Positions 2,255 through 41,238 of a stretch of 41,238 nucleotides of DNA are shown here, in pieces. Numbering within the stretch: position 1 is the stretch's first letter; every line of letters starts with the position of its first letter. The DNA lies in contig MU271217.1 of the NCBI GenBank assembly GCA_021432655.1, positions 19,930 to 61,167 of the forward strand. Reading direction: 5' to 3'. The notes below the pieces were generated by a model. The model saw only the letters and a list, made by a program, of their open reading frames with translations. It did not search any database and was not told the origin of the DNA. This stretch comes from Atractiella rhizophila. Its lineage: Eukaryota. The position numbers and the translations under genes were made by a program.

Positions 2255-3409
2255 CTAATCCACCTTGACGCTCTTCGGCGCATGTCGCCTCCCCCTCTTC
2301 GTGTACGACTTAATGAAGAAATTCGAGAAGAGGACGGTGAGAGGAGTGAGGTAAGCGAGGTTGAGGACGGTCGCTAGCTTCTGTCCGTCGCTTGCGAGAC
2401 ATTGGCGACGCCTGATACTTGGTCTGACACTTCGCCGAGGGGGATGCGGATGAAGAGGTAGGAGGCGGCTGTTCCCGAAGCCGACAAGGAATTGGCTACA
2501 TGATTGAAAAGCAGGTCAGCCAGTGAGAAAACGGTAGGAGTAAAAGCACGCACGTGATTTGCATCGTCGTTAAACTGCGTTTGAGAACTAATGGCACGTT
2601 GACTTTCATCGTCGAAAGTGCGTAATAGGTGTACATGACTATGCCATTTTATAAGGAGGCGAAAGTGGGAGAGAGAGAAAACATACTGGTGTGGATGAAG
2701 CTGTTGAACACGCAGAAAATCCAACTGGAAACGCTGCAAACCTGAGAGCCGCCCACATTGTGATGATGGCTCCGGCGTGATGATATTCTTGCAACACATG
2801 TGCTTTCTTTCCCTTGACGAGAATGATGATGGTATCTACCAGACAATCAATCAATGAGGGGCAGGAAGGAAAAGGAAAAGAACATACCGATGACCTCATA
2901 GTATTTCGAGAGGTAAAATACGTAACTCCAATTATTCAATCCCTCCGCCCAAATCCTCCCATCCATATCGCAGTACGTCCTTACGAACCCCTGGGATCCG
3001 TGATACCAGAACGCCTTGATGAAGCTCCCATAGACGAGAGGAGCAGTCTTGCAGAACGTGGCAAAGGAGTAAATTGCCAGTAGAGCGTTGTGGGCGACGA
3101 TGAGGGAGCGAGGAATGTGGAAGGATGGAGTGCATGGACGGGAGCGATTGAAATAGGAGACGGTGAGGAGGTAGACAGTTGCAAAAAGGACCGGAGTGAG
3201 CGGATGGAGAGTCCTGGATTCAGGCAAGACATAAGGTCGCTTCTTTAACATAAACAGTAATGAAGGACATACCACTCCAATAACGGATGCGGCGCACCGT
3301 CCCCGTTCCTGTTAACGAGTCCGAAGATGTCTGGGTACTCGATTGACCAGACTTTGTTGTGCCAGAGGTATCTAGCGATTCGGGAGTCGCTGGAGAATAC
3401 GGCGTCCAT
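2255..3409 (-). CDS. ELO/GNS1/SUR4-family fatty acid elongase, 5 exons, with apparent single-base frameshifts (pseudogene or sequencing error)
   Basis: Spliced motifs FYLSKYYEVI|DTIIILVKGK...LQEYHHAGA, WIFCVFNSFIHT|MYTYYALS...LTTMQIT|QFLVG...AASYLF, LNLAYLTPLTVLFSNFFIKSY...KVD*. ATG at 3409, stop at 2255-2257. Frame breaks near 2724 and 2474. Confidence 0.9.
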
Positions 3410-4960
3410 CTTGTTCAGACTCGAAAGAGGGAGAGTTGAGATGGGATGGGTGGAAAGAGATGCTCGTGGCAAGCGAGAGTGCCTTCGGAAGCAGCCTTTT
3501 GAAGGGAGCCATCCTCCCCAACGAAGAGCTCTCCCCAAACAAATTTTTGACACGCCACGGAGACGCGTGACAAAATAATCGTGATTACCGGCAAGTAACC
3601 GCCAGTAACCGACCGGGATTTGAAAAGAGTAATTATTCCGCCCGACGGAACCGCTGCAAACAACAAAAATTGCTCCACAATCAGTAATTAATCAGTGTTC
3701 CTGTGATTACCTGCAACGGGTTGAAGAGATTGCCGGGGAAGGCGCAACGGAGACGTTTGGAACGTGCGTGATTTACGATTTGTTGGTGGATTGGCCTGAA
3801 CACTCAAAAACAACAAATCGTCTTTGTAAGCTCCTGTGGTTTTAAGCTCACCGTGGAATGAGTGCATACTGGCGCTGTTATCATGCTTCGGTTCGACTGT
3901 TCTATACACAACGATCCTCTTGAGACCGCAAAGATATTGCTTGCGCTTGAACCTCAGCCAGAGCGTCGTCCCTGCTCGTAAACTGAACTCAAAAACAGGA
4001 AGATATACCAACACTCAGATCTTCAGGCTCCTCTCTACGCACATCACATCGTTGAGACCAACGGCGTGGTCTTGAATACCAGAAGTTGAGGACCATCCGT
4101 CTTTACTTTCTATGGAATGTGACTCTGACGAAGGCCTTCATGGTTCTGTCAGCTGATTCTTTTTGGGTGTCTTCTCCATGTAATTTAGACAGAGCAGCAG
4201 ACTGTTAATTGTTGCAATCCATTCTCAATTGGTTCGCCCTGCAGCGAGCAGTGTTTTAGCTTACTGCGATCGGAATTTGAAGCAGCACCTGAGTTCTGAG
4301 GGGCAGCGGCGCAAAGACACGCTTTCATCCATTGTTCTTTGCGCGACCTACTGCAAAGAATGGAAAGCTGAAGGTGCCCCAATTTCGGGTGTGCAAACAC
4401 GTCGCGACGCCAGACTCACGTCACCACTTTTGTGCACAGCCGAAGGTTTGCCCATAAACTTTATAAAAACCACTCATTCACTTGTTATTCCTCGCTCTTG
4501 CCTTTCTTTCCAAACCAATCTGAAAAAGGTCTGAAGGACTTTTGATCGACTGATTCGACGCTCAGCAACAGGACGCTTGGATTTCTTCAGGGCTGAGTTC
4601 TTCGCTGAACTCTCCCTTTTTCCTTCCTTCAACTTCTCTACGATCTACGATCTTACCTACGATCCATCACGATGCCTCTCCCTCCACGCTCTATCATCCA
4701 GACAGCTCATTTCTCGCCCTCGGCACTCTCCGCCAAACCACCTTCTGCCCTTCCTGCCAAATCCTATCTCTTCCTCCAACGAAGGTGTCCGGTCCCTGTC
4801 CTTCGCACAATGCAGTTGTCCTCCACGTTGCCTCGTATTGTCAGCCATTCGGACACGACGTCTGCGCTGGCGTTGGGATCGATTATGGACACATTGAGAG
4901 TGGAAGGAACTGCGCTTACGTCGTGCCGACGGAAGTGGTCACTGGAGGAACTAGGAATGG
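3009..4960. repeat. Copy B of the duplicated block
   Basis: Colinear with 1-1946. Confidence 0.97.
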
Positions 4961-5638
4961 GAGACAGACGGAGAGGAGCGTGGAGGTTTGGGGAGTGTTG
5001 AAGGCGGTGGAGAAGGGGAGGGAGTTGGCGGTTAATTCGTTGAGGTTCGTCCTCCCTCTCTCTTCTTTTTTGGTTATCTGTAGGCAAGCGCTGATATCAT
5101 GTCATGGAACAGGGAAATGGACCGCGCAAAGGTGCCAGGACGTATTCGCAGCTTTGCGGGTCAGATCGGATCCTCATGGGAAGAAGAGGGATACAAACAC
5201 TCCTTTTCCTACTCAGTACCTACGAACGTGAAGGAGATTGTGATCCTCACCTCCTCCCTCTACTTCCTCGACGGCATCATGCTCTCCCCCGACTCCAAGC
5301 CGTGGAGCGGGACCAGGCCGTCCTACCTTTCCAGCAGCGCGACAAAGAATGATGGGAAGCAAAGGAAGCTGAGAGGTCGCAAATACACCTTCTCTGGGAC
5401 CTTGCCCGCACCTCAGGCTAGGATCATAACGTCCCACAAGCCGTCTTCGTCGTGGTTCAGGAAACGAACGTACCCGGCGGCGGTGGATTGGGATCTCTTT
5501 AAAGCGGTGGAGAGGACGATCGCGGAGTGTAATAAGAAGGGAGTCCTCGTGTCATTTGTGAGAGTCAAGAAAGAGGGGAGGAAGAGTCCTGCGTGGACTG
5601 GAGCGAGGATGGCGGCGGCGAGGGGAGGAAGAGATTAA
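4672..5638 (+). CDS. RNase HI-like (Dikarya-type) fold protein, probably catalytically degenerate; frameshifted in this copy
   Basis: The motif series VVLHVASYC / AGVGIDYG / RN / QTERSVEVWGVLKAVE / IVILTSSLYFLDGI / DWDLFKAVE / VSFVRVK parallels RNase H1 (VYTDGxC / AGxGVxFG / RN / QTNQRAEL / IxTDSxY / NxDL / VxFxHV). Intron at ~5046-5082. 1-nt deletion near 4736 relative to copy A. Confidence 0.7.
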
Positions 5639-14571: not shown

Positions 14572-17230
14572 TCAAAAGCTTGTGGCTGGTCCAAATCGTT
14601 GCACATGGGTAGGAAGATGAAGTAGAAGATGGAATTTGCGTTTGTTAAACCATTGGGGAGACAGGAGGGCAGTTTTGTTTAGAAAATGATGGATCACAGT
14701 CTCAAGTTCATGGCAATACTGACCTATATCAGAAATCGATGGACGCCATACTAGCCGACACAAGCGACCCAAAGCAACCCAAGCATCCAGTTGAAGCTGT
14801 GAAACAAGATCATGAAGCGCAAAAATAGCAAGTTGAGCTATTATACGGAAGTCTGTGCCAACCAAGCTCTGAGCATATTGCACCAGAGTTTCACCTCGTG
14901 GAGAGGAACATCCAAGTCCGTTCGGGTCAGCAGCAGAGAGTCTCTCAGCGACAAGAGTTTTCTGGCCTTCAGACAACCCATTAATACTCTCTCGCCAGAA
15001 ATACTTGACAAAGCCAAGCAAAATACCATGAAGAATCTCGAAAGGGGTATCTTGATGACAATCAAAAGCATGCAGGTCAAACAAGGGATTGTAGTGCCAT
15101 TTTCTAGCCTGCTGTTCATCTAGACAAGTTTTTAAGTGGGTCCGAATTTCATCTGCATTTGCTTTAGCATCTTCCATTGATTCCGCCAGCTGAAGAAGTT
15201 CTTCTATGAAGTGAGAAACAACAGGGTCTCGTATCCCTGATTTACGCTGCGCATTCGTTATCCGAGTTTTAGAACGAAGATCGGCAGCCATTTGATGAAT
15301 CTCCTGCACCTTGCACTTTGTTTCCTGCATACATCTCGCTTCACCAGTCTGCATAAAATTGGTTATCCCAGCTCCAGTAAGTTGATCACCTTTCTTCTCC
15401 TCACCAACTTTGCACACTCGACAGAACTTCAGGCTTGCTCCTAATGATGGAGAGCAGGAGCAAGCCTCCCCTTGCATAGGATTATCACCCTCAAAGACAA
15501 TTGCAATTGGCCGAAGCAGTAACTCTTCATCCATGACATTGTCATAAGAAATGATTCCCTTGGACCAGTAATCATTGAGTTGCTCAACAACGCCTTCCAG
15601 CAATTCAGTTGCAGAGACATTATTTGAGGTGCCAATGAAGTGGATGTTGAACTCTTGTTGTTGGAGCTGATGCGGCAGGCCAGCAAGGGTCATTAATGCT
15701 GAAATATGCTTATTCCATCGTTTGGATACATTGCCCGAGCTATCATCGTAATAAAGCACCAAAGGAATATTAAGAACTCTCCGTCCTTGGGCAAAATCAC
15801 GAAGAGGATTGGTGAGAGGCATGTTGATGGAGCATAGTTGGCCATCTCGAGTACATTGTGAGATATAAGGGGGAATGAGTGCCGACCTTGATAAGATGCT
15901 AGTGATATTGGCTTCAAACATAGAGACAGGCAATTCTTCTTCATCTTCTGAAATGATCCATCCTCCAGGTTGACCATTCTCGTGCAGGTAAGATCCACGA
16001 GCATAAAGACTTCTTGACTCAGCATGCAGGAACCATCGGAATGGCATGAAGTAATGACCATCCTCTAACTGAACAGCCTCGTTGACAAAGAATAAAGATC
16101 CCTTGACATGTACAGAGGGCGAGAGAAATTGAGCATCAAGCTCTTGTGCCCACTTTGATGACTGCCACATCTCCTGAACTGCTTTGCTGCTGTCTTCTGA
16201 AATGAAGATGCTTCCGAACAAGTGGATTGGCGACCTCCTGTGAAATGATCTTGCCAATGTCATTGAGGTGATAGATGTTACTCTTATGGGTTGTATTCTG
16301 AAGTGTTTGTGGACCAATGTTTTCCTCTTGAAACTGTTGGTGCAACTTGTTCAACCGTGCCTTTGATGGAAGCTTTGGAGGCGGGAGTCCTTTTGCAGAG
16401 CATAACTCTGGAATAATCCACCACAGAAGTTGCCGTAGGGTCTCTGAAATATGATGCCGAGGCAGATTCAATAGAAGATCAGCTAAAGCTTCCTCAAGAG
16501 TCTTGTACGGAAACCAATCACTTGCCGAAGTTTGTGTCAGAAAGGATTCCAAGTCCATATCAGGCTGATCTAGCTGGTTCATCAGGCGGTCCTTCAGGCC
16601 AAGCATCTTCTCTAAAAAAGCTTGATCACATTCTTCCTCAGTCTGTTCTGCCCAAAGTTCCTGCCATGCTTGCTGAGTACACATTTCTCCATCATGCTCA
16701 TTGCTAAAACCAGGATTATCTTCTGGCGGCCATGCAGAAAATACCATCTCATGCATCAGCTGCTGTAATGAAGGTGGGAGAGGATTTGTCCAAACTCACC
16801 GTGCTTGAAGAGAAGCGTGATGTGATGTTGGTTAGGTAAAATCAATGTCATCTGGTCCAAGATTAAATGGTGTCTGAGATTGGCATTCAGCATTATTCAG
16901 ATTTGCTGGCTGTGCAAACAAGCGATTTGGACGATATATTGGCTCAAATTGAAGTCTTAGAGTTGAAGGAGAAGCGTTTGTGGCAGGCTCAGAAGCATCA
17001 GAAGTAGAGATAAGATGAGCATTGTTCCGGTGCTGGTTTGAATTGGCATGCCGTAAGCAGGGATGGTTTTCTTTATTAGAAAAAGCTATTGGGCAAATAC
17101 GACAGTGAAATCGGTTGTCTTTCCACTGGAAATGGGTATAGATCTCCTCAAACGATTTAAAGCAACTCCCTTTAAATGAATTCAGGCATGGTGTTTTCAG
17201 TATTACAACATTGACAATAAGATCTCTCAC
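14572..17230 (-). pseudogene. Basidiomycete DNA transposase-like gene (CMC/EnSpm/Plavaka-like; DDxSGNxSKxWNKH family), disrupted and 3'-truncated
   Basis: N-terminal C2H2 finger CRIC...H.....H; WFPY...DLLLNLPR; NIYHLNDI...ANPLVRKHLHF; PLVLYYDDSSGNVSKRWNKH; GDNPMQ; FCRVC; DTPFEILHGILLGFVKYFW; KFHLLLHL...RFGPA. In-frame TAA at 16832, frameshift near 16198, abrupt end after RFGPA. Confidence 0.8.
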
Positions 17231-17900
17231 CAGAAGCCATAATACTGTCCTTTTGATATCTCTTGTATTAATAAATGTTCTTCACCAATGATCCTGTTTT
17301 GTCCAAAGATCAGTCCGTTGATTGATGGTATTGATGACTTTGCACTTTGCACAGGCTTCATGGTGACAATTATTCACCACCACACACCACGTACCACCAT
17401 CCTTTTCTAATTCTTGTGCAGTATCAAGTATCAACACAACATCAATGGCCAATCCCTTCTTGAATGCATCTCCAATCAACACGGTTTGTTTCGTAACTTC
17501 AACCTCTCCGCATCTACCACAATCAGCTGCTCCAAGTTCTCTCCCCTCTTCCCAGAATTTGCATGTACAGCAACTCCATACAACACCTTGCAGTACTCCA
17601 GGTTCACGCAACACATCTCCAAGTCCTTCTCTCACAATGGCCCCACCATCTCTGGACTCAGTTTTGTGTACTGTATCTGCGGTTGAAGAGTGAGCAACAT
17701 GTTTTCTCCTTTGAGCGTAAATGCTTGACCTTGTTTTGGGCAAATCTGTGAGCAGTTTGGACTTCACCACACCCACTCAAAATGATGTGTCCGCAACTGC
17801 CCTTCCCACCAGACCAATTCTCCCCCTGCACTTCCCTTCCTTCCATTATCATTTACTCCACTGCCATCTTCCTCACTGTCCAGTGGGCCTCTTTTGCCAT

Positions 17901-17986
17901 CACACCTCGCGCAATTCATTGTGAACAAGCCGGCAGTGCGGACACACCTCGCGCAATTCATTGTGAACAAGCCGGCAGTGCGGACA
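17901..17986. repeat. Perfect tandem duplication, 42 bp x 2
   Basis: cacacctcgcgcaattcattgtgaacaagccggcagtgcgga at 17901 and 17943. Confidence 0.97.
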
Positions 17987-18883
17987 GCAGATTACAGTGG
18001 TATTGAGAGGTTTTCAGGTGTGCGTTGCGGTTTTGATGGACTGAGACCCGGTGGTGTTGGACCAAGGGCTGTCTGTCAATGGTAGACGGCCCGTTGCATA
18101 ACCAGAAAATGCAAGGGGTGCCTGGATTAGTTTGTGAGAAGAGTCTCAACACTTACGAGCTGTGCTGGCGTGGGTCAGGCTGATGCGGTTGAGCAAGAGA
18201 TGGCAAACCGGGTAACTTTGATTGAGTTACGAAACCTCCTTCAAGATGTCGTCGATATGCAAACTAGTGGATACAAAGTGTCTGATAATCTCTCAGTATG
18301 CCCCTCTATTCTTTCGTAGACCTTGCTCGTTTCGCTGTGTAGTCACAATTCTATGCCATGGCTCATGCATACATCTTGAATCCAGGTACAGTGTCATTCA
18401 AAGTGGCTCACTCGAAGCTCATGGCAAGCCACTTTGTCTACCTCCAGCTGATTTTCTTACTGAACTAACATTAGGCTGTGGTTAAGTCTCCTGCCTTCAA
18501 GCATATCCTGGCAATTCTCAAGGACAATGCCATTGTGATGAAATTAGTCGGAAGAGATGTACAGCGCCGCTGTACAAAGGCACGTAATGCCATCAAAAAA
18601 TAGGTGGGTTGTGCTTCACTTCTGGCTGTTTTGAGCATTTGATAACAGATCAAGGATTCTATCGAAGAGATGCAGCATATTCAAGACCTAACCAACTATT
18701 TACATCGGTTCAAGCTGGGAACTTACACAAACACTCGCATCTCAGAGTCAGAAATGATGCTTGTCTCAATGCTTGTAAGTTATGTCTGCCCGTCCAATGT
18801 CAGTGATAACGAGAACCTGTCAGGGTTCGAGCCCCTGATATACCTTAAGTACAGACCAAGATGGGTGTAAACACCCATCATTA

Positions 18884-18977
18884 GCTCTTTTAGTTCAGTT
18901 GGTTAGCTGTTGGTCTGTAGCCATTCTGACAGAATGATGGGTTACGTGGGTCGTTGGTTCGAATCCCAGTCCCAGCG
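18884..18977 (+). promoter_or_regulatory. tRNA-Tyr(GTA)-derived Pol III internal promoter (A box 18891-18902, B box 18956-18966)
   Basis: TAGTTCAGTTGG...CTGTAG...GGTCGTTGGTTCGAATCC resembles eukaryotic tRNA-Tyr (TAGCTCAGTTGG...CTGTAG[intron]...GGTCGCTGGTTCGAATCC). Acceptor and anticodon stems do not close. Confidence 0.8.
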
Positions 18978-19123
18978 GCTTACAGCTCCCTGGCCCCCGG
19001 TCCAGGAGTGGTGACCCTGTAGGGGGGTTACGGAGCTGGGGGGTCAGCTACTTAAGTTAACTTTGTTCTGTTGTATTCTGTTGTGTTCTGTTGTGTGGCT
19101 GCTTGTCCTGTGCATCTAGAGAA

Positions 19124-19207
19124 GAGTAAGACCCAAAAGGGGCTGTCCTAGCAGCCATAGGCTGTGAGTAAGACCCAAAAGGGGCTGTCCTAGCAGCCAT
19201 AGGCTGT
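19124..19207. repeat. Perfect tandem duplication, 42 bp x 2, inside the TRIM
   Basis: gagtaagacccaaaaggggctgtcctagcagccataggctgt at 19124 and 19166, plus a partial third copy. Confidence 0.97.
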
Positions 19208-21457
19208 GAGTCAGACCAGAAAGCACACAGACACAAAGATACAAAGAACAAGGGGGGTGATGTCAGGGTTCGAGCCCCTGATATACCTTAAGTACAGACC
19301 AAGATGGGTGTAAACACCCATCATTAGCTCTTTTAGTTCAGTTGGTTAGCTGTTGGTCTGTAGCCATTCTGACAGAACCTAGCGCCGGTTTGTCAAATTT
19401 GACCTTGAACTAGAAAGTCAAGGGAAGAAAGTTATAGTCAAGCCAACGACAGGTCCAGCATCGAAGAAGCGGAAGCAAGCGCGCCGAGCACGCAGACGAA
19501 TTGAACGAAGATGATGAAGCAGAAAACCTTTCATGCTGGGATGCACTGGATCAGGAGCTTCTTACCTTGGCAAAGCTCTCACATGCGGAACGATTCACGT
19601 ATGCCAAGGCCCATCTCAGTATTAAACTGCTCACACTGGTGTTTGGGGAATAGGAAAGCCAGCCAGGTATATGCCGAAGACCTCAATCTGTACAACAGTC
19701 CTCCAGAAAGCGAGACGACGAAATCTCACCGTGCCTTCCACGCATACTTCACTGCAATCCTGCCTCAAATTCTTGCTGCTGGGAACATGGTACAGGCAGG
19801 GGGGCAGGGTTACTAGGGGAATGGGAATGGAGTGAGGTGGTGACATGAGCCAGATGACGGAGGCCCGGCAGGCAGAAGGTGTTATGTTCTTTTTAATGAT
19901 GCGGTCAGTCATATGCTTTTGTTTCGTTTTCTTTGCTCTATCCTGCTATTTCAATCGAATTTAATACCTTTCTTCATTGTATACCCAACTGTCGAGGGGA
20001 GAGGAAGGAGGAGCAGCAAATGCGCCGACCGACACTGGTCATGAAACAGCCGGCTTAGAACCGAAAACCACGTTTTTTTCGGCTGCTATCAGCAGCCTCC
20101 AGTCGATCCCCCTGGGATTCAAATTAGATTCATTAAACGAGTCGCCGGGGAGTCGTCCGGAGGGACGCACGATAGGAGTAACTACATCGAACTCGTTTTC
20201 GAGTCCCTAGAGACGGCAAACGGAGCTGCGCCGGGACTCTCTGCTTCACAGTCCTGACGGAGCTCCCCTGGATTCCGTACCCAACCTGCCGTGTACTCTT
20301 TGAAGCGCTGGCGCAAAATCATGAAGGCAGTCGGCTTATATAAAGCGAAGACATGACCCTTCTCATCCTTCAAGGCCCAGAGCTACTTCACTACCATCTG
20401 TCGATTGCACAAGAACTCTCAAACTATCGATATGGAAACTTCCTCCAGAATTAACCAGTGGAACTTTGTTGTAAGTTCTCTCGCCTTGTTTCAGTTATCC
20501 GTCAGAAGCTGCTTTTCGAAGGAAAAAAGGGAACATACGTACATTATTGAGGTGAATGGCAACGAACATGTCGTCCCTGAAGAGATGGTGTTGGAGTTTC
20601 TAGCTAGATTGCTCGCTTGTACGCATTTTCGCTTTATTCCTATCTGGTAGCAGACATTGAAGGCGGCGCGTAGGCATCATTTGAAACAGCTTCTACGGTT
20701 GAGGTGGAAAACGGTGAGTACACTTGCCCTGGTTGAACTTTGAAAACTAACATTCTCATTTCTTCCAAGATGCACGTGACGGGTTCGATGTTTCGCCACC
20801 ACTTCGACTACCTTCCTCTCTACTTCCAAGCAACAGTTTCTTTCACTCTCTGTGATCAAAGTCTGCCTTTGTGTACACCTATATGTGTAGTCTGCCCTAA
20901 CTCTGTTTGAAACAGCGAGAACAAGACATAACTTAACCTCTCCTGCCTCTGCGTCTCCCTTTATGTCTTAGAAACTTGGATTAGCACACTCCTAATAAAT
21001 GTCACGTAAAAGAGGAGAGAAGAGAGCCGGTGCCAAACCAATCGATGGGGCCGTGTACAAATAATAGCGCGAATTGGATCGGACACTATACTATCGCAGA
21101 CTGCGACAATAGACTAGTTACCTCATGCCTGAACGTTCTGAACAGTGATAACTGATCAAAATGCATCTGGTTCTTCCTCAAGCGTCCTCTTGCTACAGTA
21201 TCGTCGTTCGCACGAGCGTCAACTTAGAAAAAGTGAGTCATCGTCACTGGGTATGGTCCAGCAACTTTCTTTCCATGATACTTGCCCTCATACACAAGAA
21301 ACAATCCCCAGGAGTGAATAGCAAACTATTCAAAAGTGATTTGCACCTTTGTAGAAGCGCATATGTCCGATATCAGCGTCGAGAGTAACAACGTGGATTA
21401 CAGTAGCGTTACATCATTTCGATTAAATTCACACAATTTCGCCACGCCGGCATCAGC

Positions 21458-37718: not shown

Positions 37719-38837
37719 AACTGAAAAATGTCATTTTTCTCACACGGTAGGTTCAGCACGCCCAAAGACGCGTCCTGCCGCATCGGATTACAGTTCTATC
37801 ACACGAAATCTCTAGGTGACGCGCGTGAAAATCATAAAACTGGAATCAACACCTTCGGCACAAAACCTTTTCTCCCTTTGTCTTCCCCCAACATGGGGAT
37901 CGAGGTTTCGTTTGGACGTGTTATTGGGCGAGCACGTCCTGTCTGCACGGTTGCGAAAGGTGCACACGGTGAACTGCATTCATCGGGATTGATATGCATT
38001 ACTGAAAATCAACGCCAAATGTGGCTGAGGGCAAGAGGTGAGAGGAGTAGGCGGTTACGTAACAGACCGCTGCTTCTCTGTGTTTATCAAATTTATCAAA
38101 GCTTGAGCTCAGACAGTTGCATAGATTGCAGCTACTAGAACGAGAGAAAAATGCATGTGGTAGAGCTTTTGGGACGAGAAAATCATTGGTCAATAGTACG
38201 AAAGTGTCATTTGCGCTCGAAAATGGGGATTCTGGGTTAATATGCGCATAGCGTGAGCATAGATCCTTCCTTTCATGCACAGACTGCATCTGATCTCCAC
38301 TTGGGCTAGGACTTCAGGGTCCTGTCCCCAGGAAGCAACTCAGTTGTTTATCGGAGGTGTCACAGAGTTTCTTTCATCACTAAATCGTTCTTGATTGGTA
38401 CGGAGGTACTGGTCCCATCATCCTCGTTCATGAACGGCCTCGACAAGTTGACAACCACATTATCTGTGTGCTAGCCAACGGTAGCTATGCAAACGCCTCC
38501 TAGTTCTAAGAAAGCTCTTCAGCAACTATCGAAAATTGAGAAGCTCGTGACAATGTCTCGACCCAGATTAGGTTTATAAATTGACAATCATCGAAATAGT
38601 ATTTCTCGGTCCATAAAGTATCGCGGATGATTCTTTGGAGCGACTAGCCCTGAAGGTCGTGAGCAAAACCCACAGATTGTCCAGCTTCGATCGAAGCGCA
38701 AGCGGAAGAGGCACGAATATCAGCGGAGACTGTGGAATGTCTTTTATTCATTCTAAATGAGCATCCAATTGCAACGGTTCAGCTCTGGGTTCAGCTACCA
38801 TCCACTCCGAATAAGGAGGAAGGCACCAGCTCACAGG
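37719..38837. repeat. Copy 1 of a >=1.1-kb direct repeat
   Basis: aactgaaaaatgtcatttttctcacacgg...caccagctcacagg recurs at 40123-41238 with scattered substitutions and small indels. Confidence 0.97.
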
Positions 38838-40122: not shown

Positions 40123-41238
40123 AACTGAAAAATGTCATTTTTCTCACACGGTAGGTTCAGCACGCCCAAAGACGCGTCCTGCCGCATCGGATTACAGTTC
40201 TATCACACGAAATCTCTCGGTGACGCGCGTGAAAATCATAAAACTGGAATCAACACCTTCGGCACAAAACCTTCTCTCCCTTTGTCTTCCCCCAACATGG
40301 GGATCGAGGTTTCGTTTGGACGTGTTATTGGGCGAGCACGTCCTGTCTGCACGGTTGCGAAAGTGCACACGGTGAACTGCATTCATCGGGATTGATATGC
40401 ATTACTGAAAAATCAACGCCAAGTGTGGCTGAGGGCAAGAGGTGAGAGGAGTGGGTGGGTTACGTAACGGACCACTGCTTCTTTATGTTTATCAAATTTA
40501 TCAAAGCTTGAGCTCAGACAGTTGCATATACGATTGCAGCTACTAGAACGATGAGAAAAATGCATGTTGTAGAACTTTTGGGACGAGAAAATCATTGGTC
40601 AATGGTACGAAAGTGTCATTTGCGCTCGAAAATTGAAATTCTGGGTTAATATGCGCATAGATCCTTCCTTTCATGCACAGACTGCATCTGATCTCCACTT
40701 GGGCTAGGACTTCAGGGTCCTGCCACCAGGAAGCAACTCAGCTGTTTATCGGAGGTGTCACAGAGTTTCTTTCATCGCTAAATCGGTCTTGATTGGTATG
40801 GAGGTACTTGTCCCATCATCCTCGTTCATGAACGGCCTCGACAAGTTGACAACCACATTATCTGTGTGCTAGCCAACGGTAGCTATGCAAACCCCTCCTG
40901 GTTCTAAGAAAGCTCTTCAGCACCTGTCGAAAATTGAGAAGCTCGTGACAATGTCTCGACCCAGATTAGGTTTATAAAATGGCAATCATCGAAATAGTAT
41001 TTCTCGGTCCATAAAGGATCGCGGATGATTCTTTGGAGCGACTAGCCCTGAAGGTCGTGAGCAAAACCCACAGATTGTCCAGCTTCGATCGAAGCGCAAG
41101 CGGAAGAGGCACAAATATCAGCGGAGACTGTGGAATGTCTTTCATTCATTCTAAATGAGCATCCAATTGCAACGGTTCAGCTCTGGGTTCAGCTACCATC
41201 CACTCCGAATAATGACGAGGAAGGCACCAGCTCACAGG
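40123..41238. repeat. Copy 2 of the direct repeat (runs off window end)
   Basis: Colinear with 37719-38837; start-to-start offset 2404 bp. Confidence 0.97.

Follow-up and report, generated by a model that had tools for sequence, protein, structure and literature searches.

Within contig MU271217.1 of the root-associated basidiomycete Atractiella rhizophila (assembly GCA_021432655.1), we found a 557-nucleotide (nt) non-coding long terminal repeat (LTR) retrotransposon whose primer-binding site (PBS) is an exact complement of a segment of its own LTR, and which probably primes its own reverse transcription in the manner of Tf1. The analyzed stretch, referred to here as the window, comprises 41,238 nt (positions 19,930 to 61,167 of the forward strand of the contig), and the element occupies positions 18818-19374 of the window on the + strand. 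It is a young, non-coding terminal-repeat retrotransposon in miniature (TRIM), for which reliance on the proteins of an autonomous element is the best explanation. It also contains words resembling the promoter boxes of tRNA genes. We favor the reading, with a probability of about 0.42 for the statement as a whole, that the RNA of this self-primed element is made by RNA polymerase III (Pol III) from internal promoter boxes derived from a tRNA gene, and we regard the choice between Pol III and RNA polymerase II (Pol II) as nearly even. Self-priming is the best-supported new point on the element.

Anatomy of the element and its candidate primer

The element had been described as a young TRIM in an earlier annotation made by a model from the letters of the sequence (the first-pass annotation), and all the features given for it could be verified: the identical 114-bp TG..CA LTRs, the GAACC target site duplication (TSD) and the polypurine tract (PPT), to which we add that the insertion is polymorphic. 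Direct repeats of 100% identity extend over 18818-18934 and 19261-19377, consisting of the 114-bp LTR (TG..CA) and three further bases (GAA) that overlap by chance between the PBS side and the TSD. The internal part between the LTRs measures 329 bp, and the unique bases of the element number 443. No + strand open reading frame (ORF) of at least 30 amino acids starting with ATG lies within the element, gag and pol are absent, and the only ORFs inside it are two short antisense frames of 47 and 37 amino acids. Together, the short TG..CA direct repeats, the TSD with the evidence of insertion, the position of the PBS, the PPT and the lack of gag and pol place the element among the TRIMs. Its features are collected in Table 1.

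Table 1. Features of the self-complementary TRIM and its borders, in window coordinates.
Feature	Position	Strand	Remarks
5' TSD, GAACC	18813-18817	+	Same five bases follow the 3' LTR
5' LTR, TGTCAG...CTGACA	18818-18931 (114 bp)	+	100% identical to 19261-19374
T-arm-like hairpin at the 5' end of the LTR	18818-18840	+	8-bp stem, 7-nt loop TTCGAGC; folds
B-box consensus match GGTTCGAGCCC in that hairpin	18824-18834 (LTR bases 7-17)	+	Motif search
TATA-like word GATATACC	18837-18844	+	Precedes the putative RNA start by about 34 nt; putative function
Hairpin GATGGGTG-UAAA-CACCCATC	18860-18879	+	Inverted repeat; 3' arm overlaps the candidate self-primer
Candidate self-primer ACCCATCATT, putative first RNA bases (start of R)	18873-18882	+	Exact complement of the PBS
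T4 run (no T run in the element is longer)	18888-18891, again 19331-19334	+	T-run scan
A-box / D-loop-like word TAGTTCAGTTGGTTAG	18891-18906	+	Reading of the sequence; D stem not kept
Small TGG/CCA hairpin, loop TCTGTAG ('anticodon-like loop' of the first-pass annotation)	18911-18923	+	Rejected by all tRNA models
PBS AATGATGGGT	18933-18942	+	Starts 2 nt after the LTR; exact complement of 18873-18882
12-bp hairpin, loop with perfect B box GGTTCGAATCC (18956-18966)	18946-18983	+	Fold and motif match
Tandem TTCTGTTGTR units (n = 3)	19066-19095	+	Predicted long-range pairing with a CA/GA-rich stretch at about 19222-19250 (462-nt RNA fold)
Exact 42-nt tandem duplication	19124-19207	+	One unit only in X1, X3 and X5 contigs
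PPT AAAGAACAAGGGGGG	19243-19257	+	Followed by TGA (three bases), then the 3' LTR
3' LTR	19261-19374	+	Identical to the 5' LTR in every base
3' TSD, GAACC	19375-19379	+	Reading of the sequence

The best partner found for the PBS was the LTR of the element itself, in a comparison that took in no host tRNA set. A complement of at least 10 nt at the PBS position arose in only 2 of 20,000 shuffles of the LTR (p about 1e-4), and none of 1077 control positions along the window reached 10 nt, the longest control complement being 9 nt and occurring once. The minimum free energy fold of 18873-18990 closes on the duplex between primer and PBS (-39.1 kcal/mol, z -2.83), and the predicted 462-nt RNA at 18873-19334 is strongly structured (z -4.12). 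The hairpin at 18860-18879, whose 3' arm overlaps the primer, has a folding energy of -13.5 kcal/mol (z -5.15) that was equaled by 0 of 200 shuffles. This complementarity had been overlooked in the first-pass annotation, which assigned the PBS to the position of a tRNA intron.

Our comparisons with published elements draw on excerpts of the cited papers and of the Helenus sequence supplement, and for the Helenus consensus sequences the comparison was limited to inspection by eye and a search for words. Self-priming, in which the first bases of the element RNA pair with the PBS by folding back and are then cleaved off to act as the primer, has been shown for Tf1 and proposed for Tj1, with Tf2 named alongside them as a self-priming element (PMC4600332), and it has been predicted for Tcn1-clade chromoviruses and TAR Copia elements (PMC6317226). 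Because the complement between primer and PBS occurs here in the layout of Tf1, the element RNA would begin at or near 18873; the 10-nt complementarity is seen in the sequence, and the start that would make it a match to the 5' end of the RNA is deduced from the primer only. The first ten bases of such an RNA (ACCCAUCAUU) would fold back on the PBS two bases past U5, the RNase H of the helper would cut the fold-back duplex, and the cut end would prime minus-strand synthesis. Since the 5' arm of the hairpin at 18860-18879 lies in U3, only the 3' copy of the primer would be masked by it, leaving the copy at the 5' end of the RNA as the one that primes. Three features agree with a start near 18873: the TATA-like word some 34 nt before it, the place of the primer in the 3' arm of a strong hairpin and the position of the other arm in U3. 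We found no description of a self-primed TRIM in the literature searched; the one TRIM paper retrieved, on bivalves, mentions self-priming merely as a possibility.

Priming by a host tRNA fragment (an anticodon loop or half-tRNA), as in most fungal Helenus elements, would make the LTR complement a coincidence and the element a member of the Helenus/Copia type, which we consider very unlikely. Helenus (TRIMp3; Kojima, 2024) comprises TRIMs with tRNA-derived sequence in the LTR, and in its fungal members the TSD is 5 bp long and the PBS pairs with the anticodon loop or the 3' end of a tRNA (PMC10886601). By eye, GGTTACGTGGGT (18940-18951) matches the common Helenus PBS ggttatgagccc at 7 of 12 places, and LTRs that begin TGTCAG and end TCTGACA, as well as a PPT that ends in GGGGGTG, recur in Pucciniales Helenus consensus sequences. 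This PBS look-alike is poor, however, and lies 8 nt from the LTR, whereas the LTR complement is exact over 10 nt, sits at the canonical position and has the low chance probability given above. Moreover, the word aatgatgggt occurs 0 times in the excerpted supplement, in which words split across lines would escape the search.

Other copies and presence in RNA libraries

Of 24 public runs listed, 20 contain part of the element, and 12 of those 20 are recorded as RNA. Four runs, the only ones used as evidence here, were compared in detail as contigs: X1 (DNA-type), X3 (no recorded type), X4 (root RNA-seq) and X5 (soil metatranscriptome), the latter two coming from two studies. In X1, a contig connects 18811 directly to 19374 with a single GAACC, which indicates that the insertion site also exists empty. 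The 5' flank (18400-18800) is represented in X1 by several contigs that differ from the window at up to 15 of 177 bases, suggesting that the flank is repeated or that the haplotypes have diverged, so the empty site may be either an allele or a paralogue.

Searching for further copies, as the first-pass annotation had suggested, gave different results for the window and for the public runs: blastn finds no further copy of the element in the 41-kb window, whereas in X1 both LTR borders adjoin several different loose ends, as expected of other insertion sites, so that copies with other flanks do exist there. In X1, X3 and X5 contigs, the internal part carries one 42-nt unit and 9 bases absent from the present copy, forming a 523/524-nt version of the element, and the duplication at 19124-19207 is therefore private to the present copy. 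Summed contig depth in X1 is about 10 times higher over the LTR than over the internal part, a ratio that does not give a copy number and would fit either an abundance of solo LTRs or the use of this LTR by other elements. Exact-word searches with four stretches from the element gave no match in metagenome, prokaryote genome or viral contigs, and no look-alike windows, by sequence or among relatives, were present in the index of scanned windows. A second exact 42-nt tandem duplication, of equal length and unrelated sequence, lies at 17901-17984, 1.2 kb from that of the element; either duplication could be real or an artefact of assembly or polishing.

RNA libraries from two studies contain the internal part, with its PBS, B box and PPT, together with the first bases of the 3' LTR. 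The X4 and X5 RNA contigs span 18916-19292 and lack the flanks of the present locus; X3 contigs span 18903-19297, and X3 is itself probably RNA, given a GT..AG joint near the element. The portions of the element outside the X4 and X5 contigs (18818-18915 and 19293-19374) reflect a coverage gap at repeats and carry no information on the ends of the RNA.

tRNA-gene-like boxes and the choice of polymerase

A type-2 Pol III promoter consists of an A box, a B box on the same strand 30-60 nt farther on (longer with introns) and a T-run terminator, and the textbook form of the A box is TRGCNNAGTGG. In the element, an A-box-like word in the LTR, which departs from the textbook form by T for C and one extra base, is followed after a gap of 53 nt by a perfect internal B box. 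The B-box consensus GGTTCGANNCC matches at three places in the 41-kb window (0.30 expected), all on the + strand within the element, and this count was reached by 0 of 100 shuffles. The three matches are the internal site at 18956-18966 and the two LTR copies of the site in the 5' hairpin, where the T-arm look-alike is perfect (stem CAGGG/CCCTG, loop TTCGAGC) and extends to 8 bp in folds. Because a B box is statistically unusual here, a type-2 Pol III promoter split across the LTR border is a live hypothesis. A 12-mer of the A-box region, TCAGTTGGTTAG, occurs three times in the Helenus supplement, and both of the two occurrences shown are in tRNA-like parts of LTRs (PMC10886601). From the rarity of the B boxes and the 12-mer common to Helenus, we conclude that the element holds pieces derived from tRNA genes, or selected to resemble them, and that no tRNA is formed.

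The geometry of the boxes agrees with the start position deduced from the primer. With an RNA start at 18873, the distance to the beginning of the A-box-like word in U5 would be 18 nt and that to the B box in the leader 83 nt; together with the 53-nt gap, this matches the geometry of tRNA genes that have an intron or a long variable arm. Order, strand and spacing from A to B thus fit a type-2 promoter behind a start that was arrived at independently. Both boxes would lie inside the transcript and would therefore survive reverse transcription and be inherited through it. Within the LTR the order is reversed, with the B box preceding the A box by 57 nt, and A is followed by B only across the border between LTR and internal part, so that only the 5' LTR together with the internal part would carry the two in order. 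Promoters of Pol III type have precedents in LTR elements, namely Helenus and Ajax (PMC10886601) and Cassandra (PMC7215508). A fuller version of the Pol III reading, in which the promoter is split by the LTR border (A in U5, B behind the PBS), the first ten bases of the RNA serve as its own primer and only the complete element is active, is more tentative than the Pol III reading in general.

Several observations weigh against transcription by Pol III. No tRNA can be recognized. ARAGORN finds 0 tRNA genes in the window, and again 0 when introns of 0-200 nt are allowed, both at default settings and with -ps; in Rfam, the region 18600-19600 gives five weak matches at E<=10, and the tRNA family RF00005 is not among them. 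By reading, the cloverleaf would retain one of four pairs in the D stem, three of five in the T stem and three of seven in the acceptor, leaving its stems broken. Matches to the loose A-box pattern TRGYNNANNNGG are frequent, numbering 24 over the window. The T4 run lies 15-18 nt past the putative start, no run of five or more T (T5+) occurs until 516 nt beyond the element, and with only T4 runs inside, the element has no clear Pol III terminator that would give a defined R. The B box at the 5' end of the LTR, being upstream of the A box, is unexplained by the Pol III model, and the TATA-like word, which precedes the putative start by about 34 nt, suits Pol II equally well. Published fungal Helenus elements, in the excerpts available, all have a PBS of tRNA type (PMC10886601). 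Finally, the copies in X1 are nearly identical, which means that conservation of the boxes cannot be judged from the one sequenced copy, and the RNA evidence consists of contigs cut at repeats, which show no start, end, strand, cap or polymerase.

These results also bear on the first-pass annotation, which proposed a promoter derived from tRNA-Tyr and split across the LTR junction. The words on which it relied are all present where it placed them (TAGTTCAGTTGG at 18891-18902, CTGTAG at 18915-18920 and GGTCGTTGGTTCGAATCC at 18949-18966), and the succession of an A-box-like word and a perfect B box 53 nt on stands at the level of motifs, where the tRNA-like boxes are real and their promoter function is putative; no tRNA is recognized. 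Nothing supports the origin from tRNA-Tyr, in view of the ARAGORN and Rfam results: its basis is only a GTA in a 7-nt loop that is closed by 3 bp and can be read otherwise. The idea of a tRNA able to fold, whose intron would be formed by the LTR end and PBS, is likewise unsupported, ARAGORN finding none even with introns allowed, and the Rfam check it had recommended gave no tRNA match. Its proposal that A precedes B only at the 5' LTR is coherent at the motif level but missed the second, better B box in the LTR, for which a split promoter offers no explanation. The absence of T5+ from the + strand, to which it drew attention, is real (T4 only) and uninformative, since 901 of 1599 windows of 557 nt from the same sequence lack one as well. 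By eye and without alignment, the LTR end GTAGCCATTCTGACA (18915-18931) resembles the LTR ends of Helenus-9_PSt and Helenus-6_PTrit, in which the tRNA-like unit closes with ...GGAGCCA as its 3' acceptor end, before a T run and CTGACA (PMC10886601). The supposed anticodon loop might alternatively be an acceptor-end remnant left by an internal deletion. Two sets of candidate matches were rejected as noise: the ARAGORN calls over the element with -ps80, a setting that yields 106 calls in the 41 kb with introns and 25 without, and the Rfam matches to mir-651 (E 0.012), STnc400, mir-9033, osmY and RNase P, all far below gathering scores.

The same self-primed TRIM may well be transcribed by Pol II from its 55-nt U3, using the TATA-like word at 18837-18844 and starting near 18873, with an LTR inherited from, or common to, an autonomous helper and with tRNA-like pieces that are old tRNA or short interspersed element (SINE) relics or RNA structure modules. 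The TATA-like word stands about 34 nt upstream of the primer, and the self-primed elements described so far, in the part of the literature cited, are Pol II elements (PMC4600332). Pol II transcription would accommodate the destroyed cloverleaf (ARAGORN, Rfam), the T4 run just past the start and the lack of a terminator inside the element, as well as the B box in U3, which is unable to act with the A box. The roughly tenfold LTR depth in X1, though not a copy number, is compatible with solo LTRs or other users of the LTR, and according to Kojima 'not a few' LTRs in Repbase contain partial tRNA-like sequence (PMC10886601). On the other hand, two independent perfect B boxes fall within 443 unique bases and none elsewhere in the 41 kb, which is hard to obtain by decay alone, the A box lies at the distance from the deduced start that is used by Pol III genes, and the 41-kb window holds no autonomous element with the same LTR.

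A further arrangement involves the B box at the 5' end of the LTR. The LTR could be a circularly permuted tRNA-like unit that becomes contiguous only where two LTRs abut, as in 2-LTR circles or tandem arrays, with the LTR|LTR junction being either an active Pol III unit or the origin of the LTR. Across such a junction, the distance from the start of the A box to the start of the LTR 5' B box is 47 nt, near the spacing of tRNA genes, and a perfect T-arm is present there, with a 5-bp stem and the loop TTCGAGC; tandem arrays of LTR and internal part are known for Cassandra (PMC7215508) and LTR-11_DR (PMC10886601). We nevertheless think this very unlikely. ARAGORN finds 0 genes on the computed LTR-LTR junction at default settings, its single -ps call ('Ser cga') uses the hairpin as the anticodon arm and so represents a different parse, only four of seven acceptor pairs form, and no abutting LTRs occur in the window or in the contigs shown.

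Related elements, genomic setting and significance

We take the element for a self-primed TRIM of a kind related to Helenus/TRIMp3; it resembles a TRIMp3 candidate, lacks or does not clearly show several of the Helenus features and adds self-priming. The Helenus family, which the first-pass annotation had named for comparison, is indeed in print, with the whole tRNA-like unit inside the LTR (PMC10886601). Like Helenus, it is a short LTR element without coding capacity, comes from a basidiomycete, has a 5-bp TSD and sense-strand words resembling the A and B boxes of tRNA genes, and falls within the published size range of 311-1263 bp (PMC10886601). LTR ends and PPT end are also, by eye, styled as in some Pucciniales families, a hint of a Copia-type helper, and fungal Helenus elements are seemingly mobilized by Copia elements (PMC10886601). 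In the Agaricomycete Helenus elements the LTR measures 209-247 bp and the internal part 51-85 bp, and Pol III transcription of Helenus has been proposed and not validated (PMC10886601).

The differences from Helenus concern both the promoter and the primer. In the Helenus consensus sequences viewed, the A box, B box and a short T run stand together inside the LTR (PMC10886601), and this whole unit is often detected by tRNAscan-SE; in the present element no tRNA is detectable, B lies upstream of A in the LTR, and a B box after A is found only in the internal region. The Helenus PBS pairs with a host tRNA whereas the present PBS pairs with its own LTR, and Kojima reported finding no complementarity between LTR and PBS in Helenus, as far as the excerpted text goes (PMC10886601). 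Of four element-specific words searched in the excerpted supplement, three had 0 occurrences and none occurred in a comparable context (line-split words would escape); the primer word ACCCATCATT was found once, inside an unrelated LTR (Helenus-3_PCor) and away from the PBS. The split layout, which the first-pass annotation did not recognize from described families, thus also differs from those in the excerpts of PMC10886601 and its supplement.

In its predicted priming, the element is closest to Tf1, Tf2 and Tj1, the Tf1/sushi group, the Tcn1 clade and the TAR Copia elements, in all of which a PBS just past U5 is complementary to the stretch of LTR where the RNA of the element presumably starts; as in the Tf1 type, there is no PBS for a tRNA 3' end and the TSD has 5 bp. 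Those elements are autonomous, protein-coding and transcribed by Pol II, whereas the present one is a 557-bp non-coding passenger for which cleavage and priming are predicted, and its primer precedes the A-box-like word, in the place that a tRNA gene would give to its 5' leader and acceptor arm. Cassandra, a plant TRIM that carries a 5S rRNA promoter and terminator in each LTR (PMC7215508), differs in the 5S rather than tRNA origin of its promoter, in having promoter and terminator both in the LTR, and in its PBS of tRNA-iMet type, TGGTATCAGAGC; among LTR elements with Pol III promoters, it is the only one with reported transcripts in the excerpted account (PMC7215508). tRNA-derived SINEs (SINE2) are likewise non-coding passengers of a retroelement that retain A and B boxes in a decayed cloverleaf, but they use the machinery of long interspersed elements and have no LTRs, PBS or PPT.

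The window is ordinary gene space, in which Pfam identifies an ORF with importin-alpha-like Arm repeats, a PP1-type phosphatase and a fragment of a beta-eliminating lyase. Downstream of the TRIM, an X3 contig spans 19431-19598 and continues over 19654-19800, skipping a 55-nt GT..AG piece (19598-19654). This splice joint indicates a spliced + strand transcript with coverage from about 60 nt downstream of the TRIM, which would place the TRIM in a promoter or leader region, and the insertion may affect this adjacent + strand gene. Upstream, the nearest long minus-strand ORFs end at 17776; they belong to a chain of long frames of 592, 219, 149 and 164 amino acids (14572-17776, no Pfam match at E<=0.01) that is probably one intron-split gene, with no family assigned. 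Two large direct duplications lie elsewhere in the window, one between 1-2000 and 3009-5000 (spacing about 3.0 kb, 87-100% identity in blocks), which includes 184 N at 1947-2130, and one between 37719-38553 and 40123-40951 (spacing about 2.4 kb, 94-99%).

Cassandra, Helenus and Ajax belong to a class, named only recently, of LTR elements that are non-autonomous and have Pol III promoters. If the Atractiella element is transcribed by Pol III from a split promoter and primed by its own RNA, it would need neither a host Pol II promoter nor a host tRNA primer, its ten-base primer would lie where a tRNA gene has its leader and acceptor arm, and solo LTRs would have a built-in reason to be silent. 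If the boxes are relics only, the element would still be a self-primed TRIM. Being small, young, present in several copies and represented in RNA libraries, it makes the question directly testable. Should the border-straddling promoter and the primer from its own RNA both work, the element would show how far a parasitic retroelement can shed host and helper signals.

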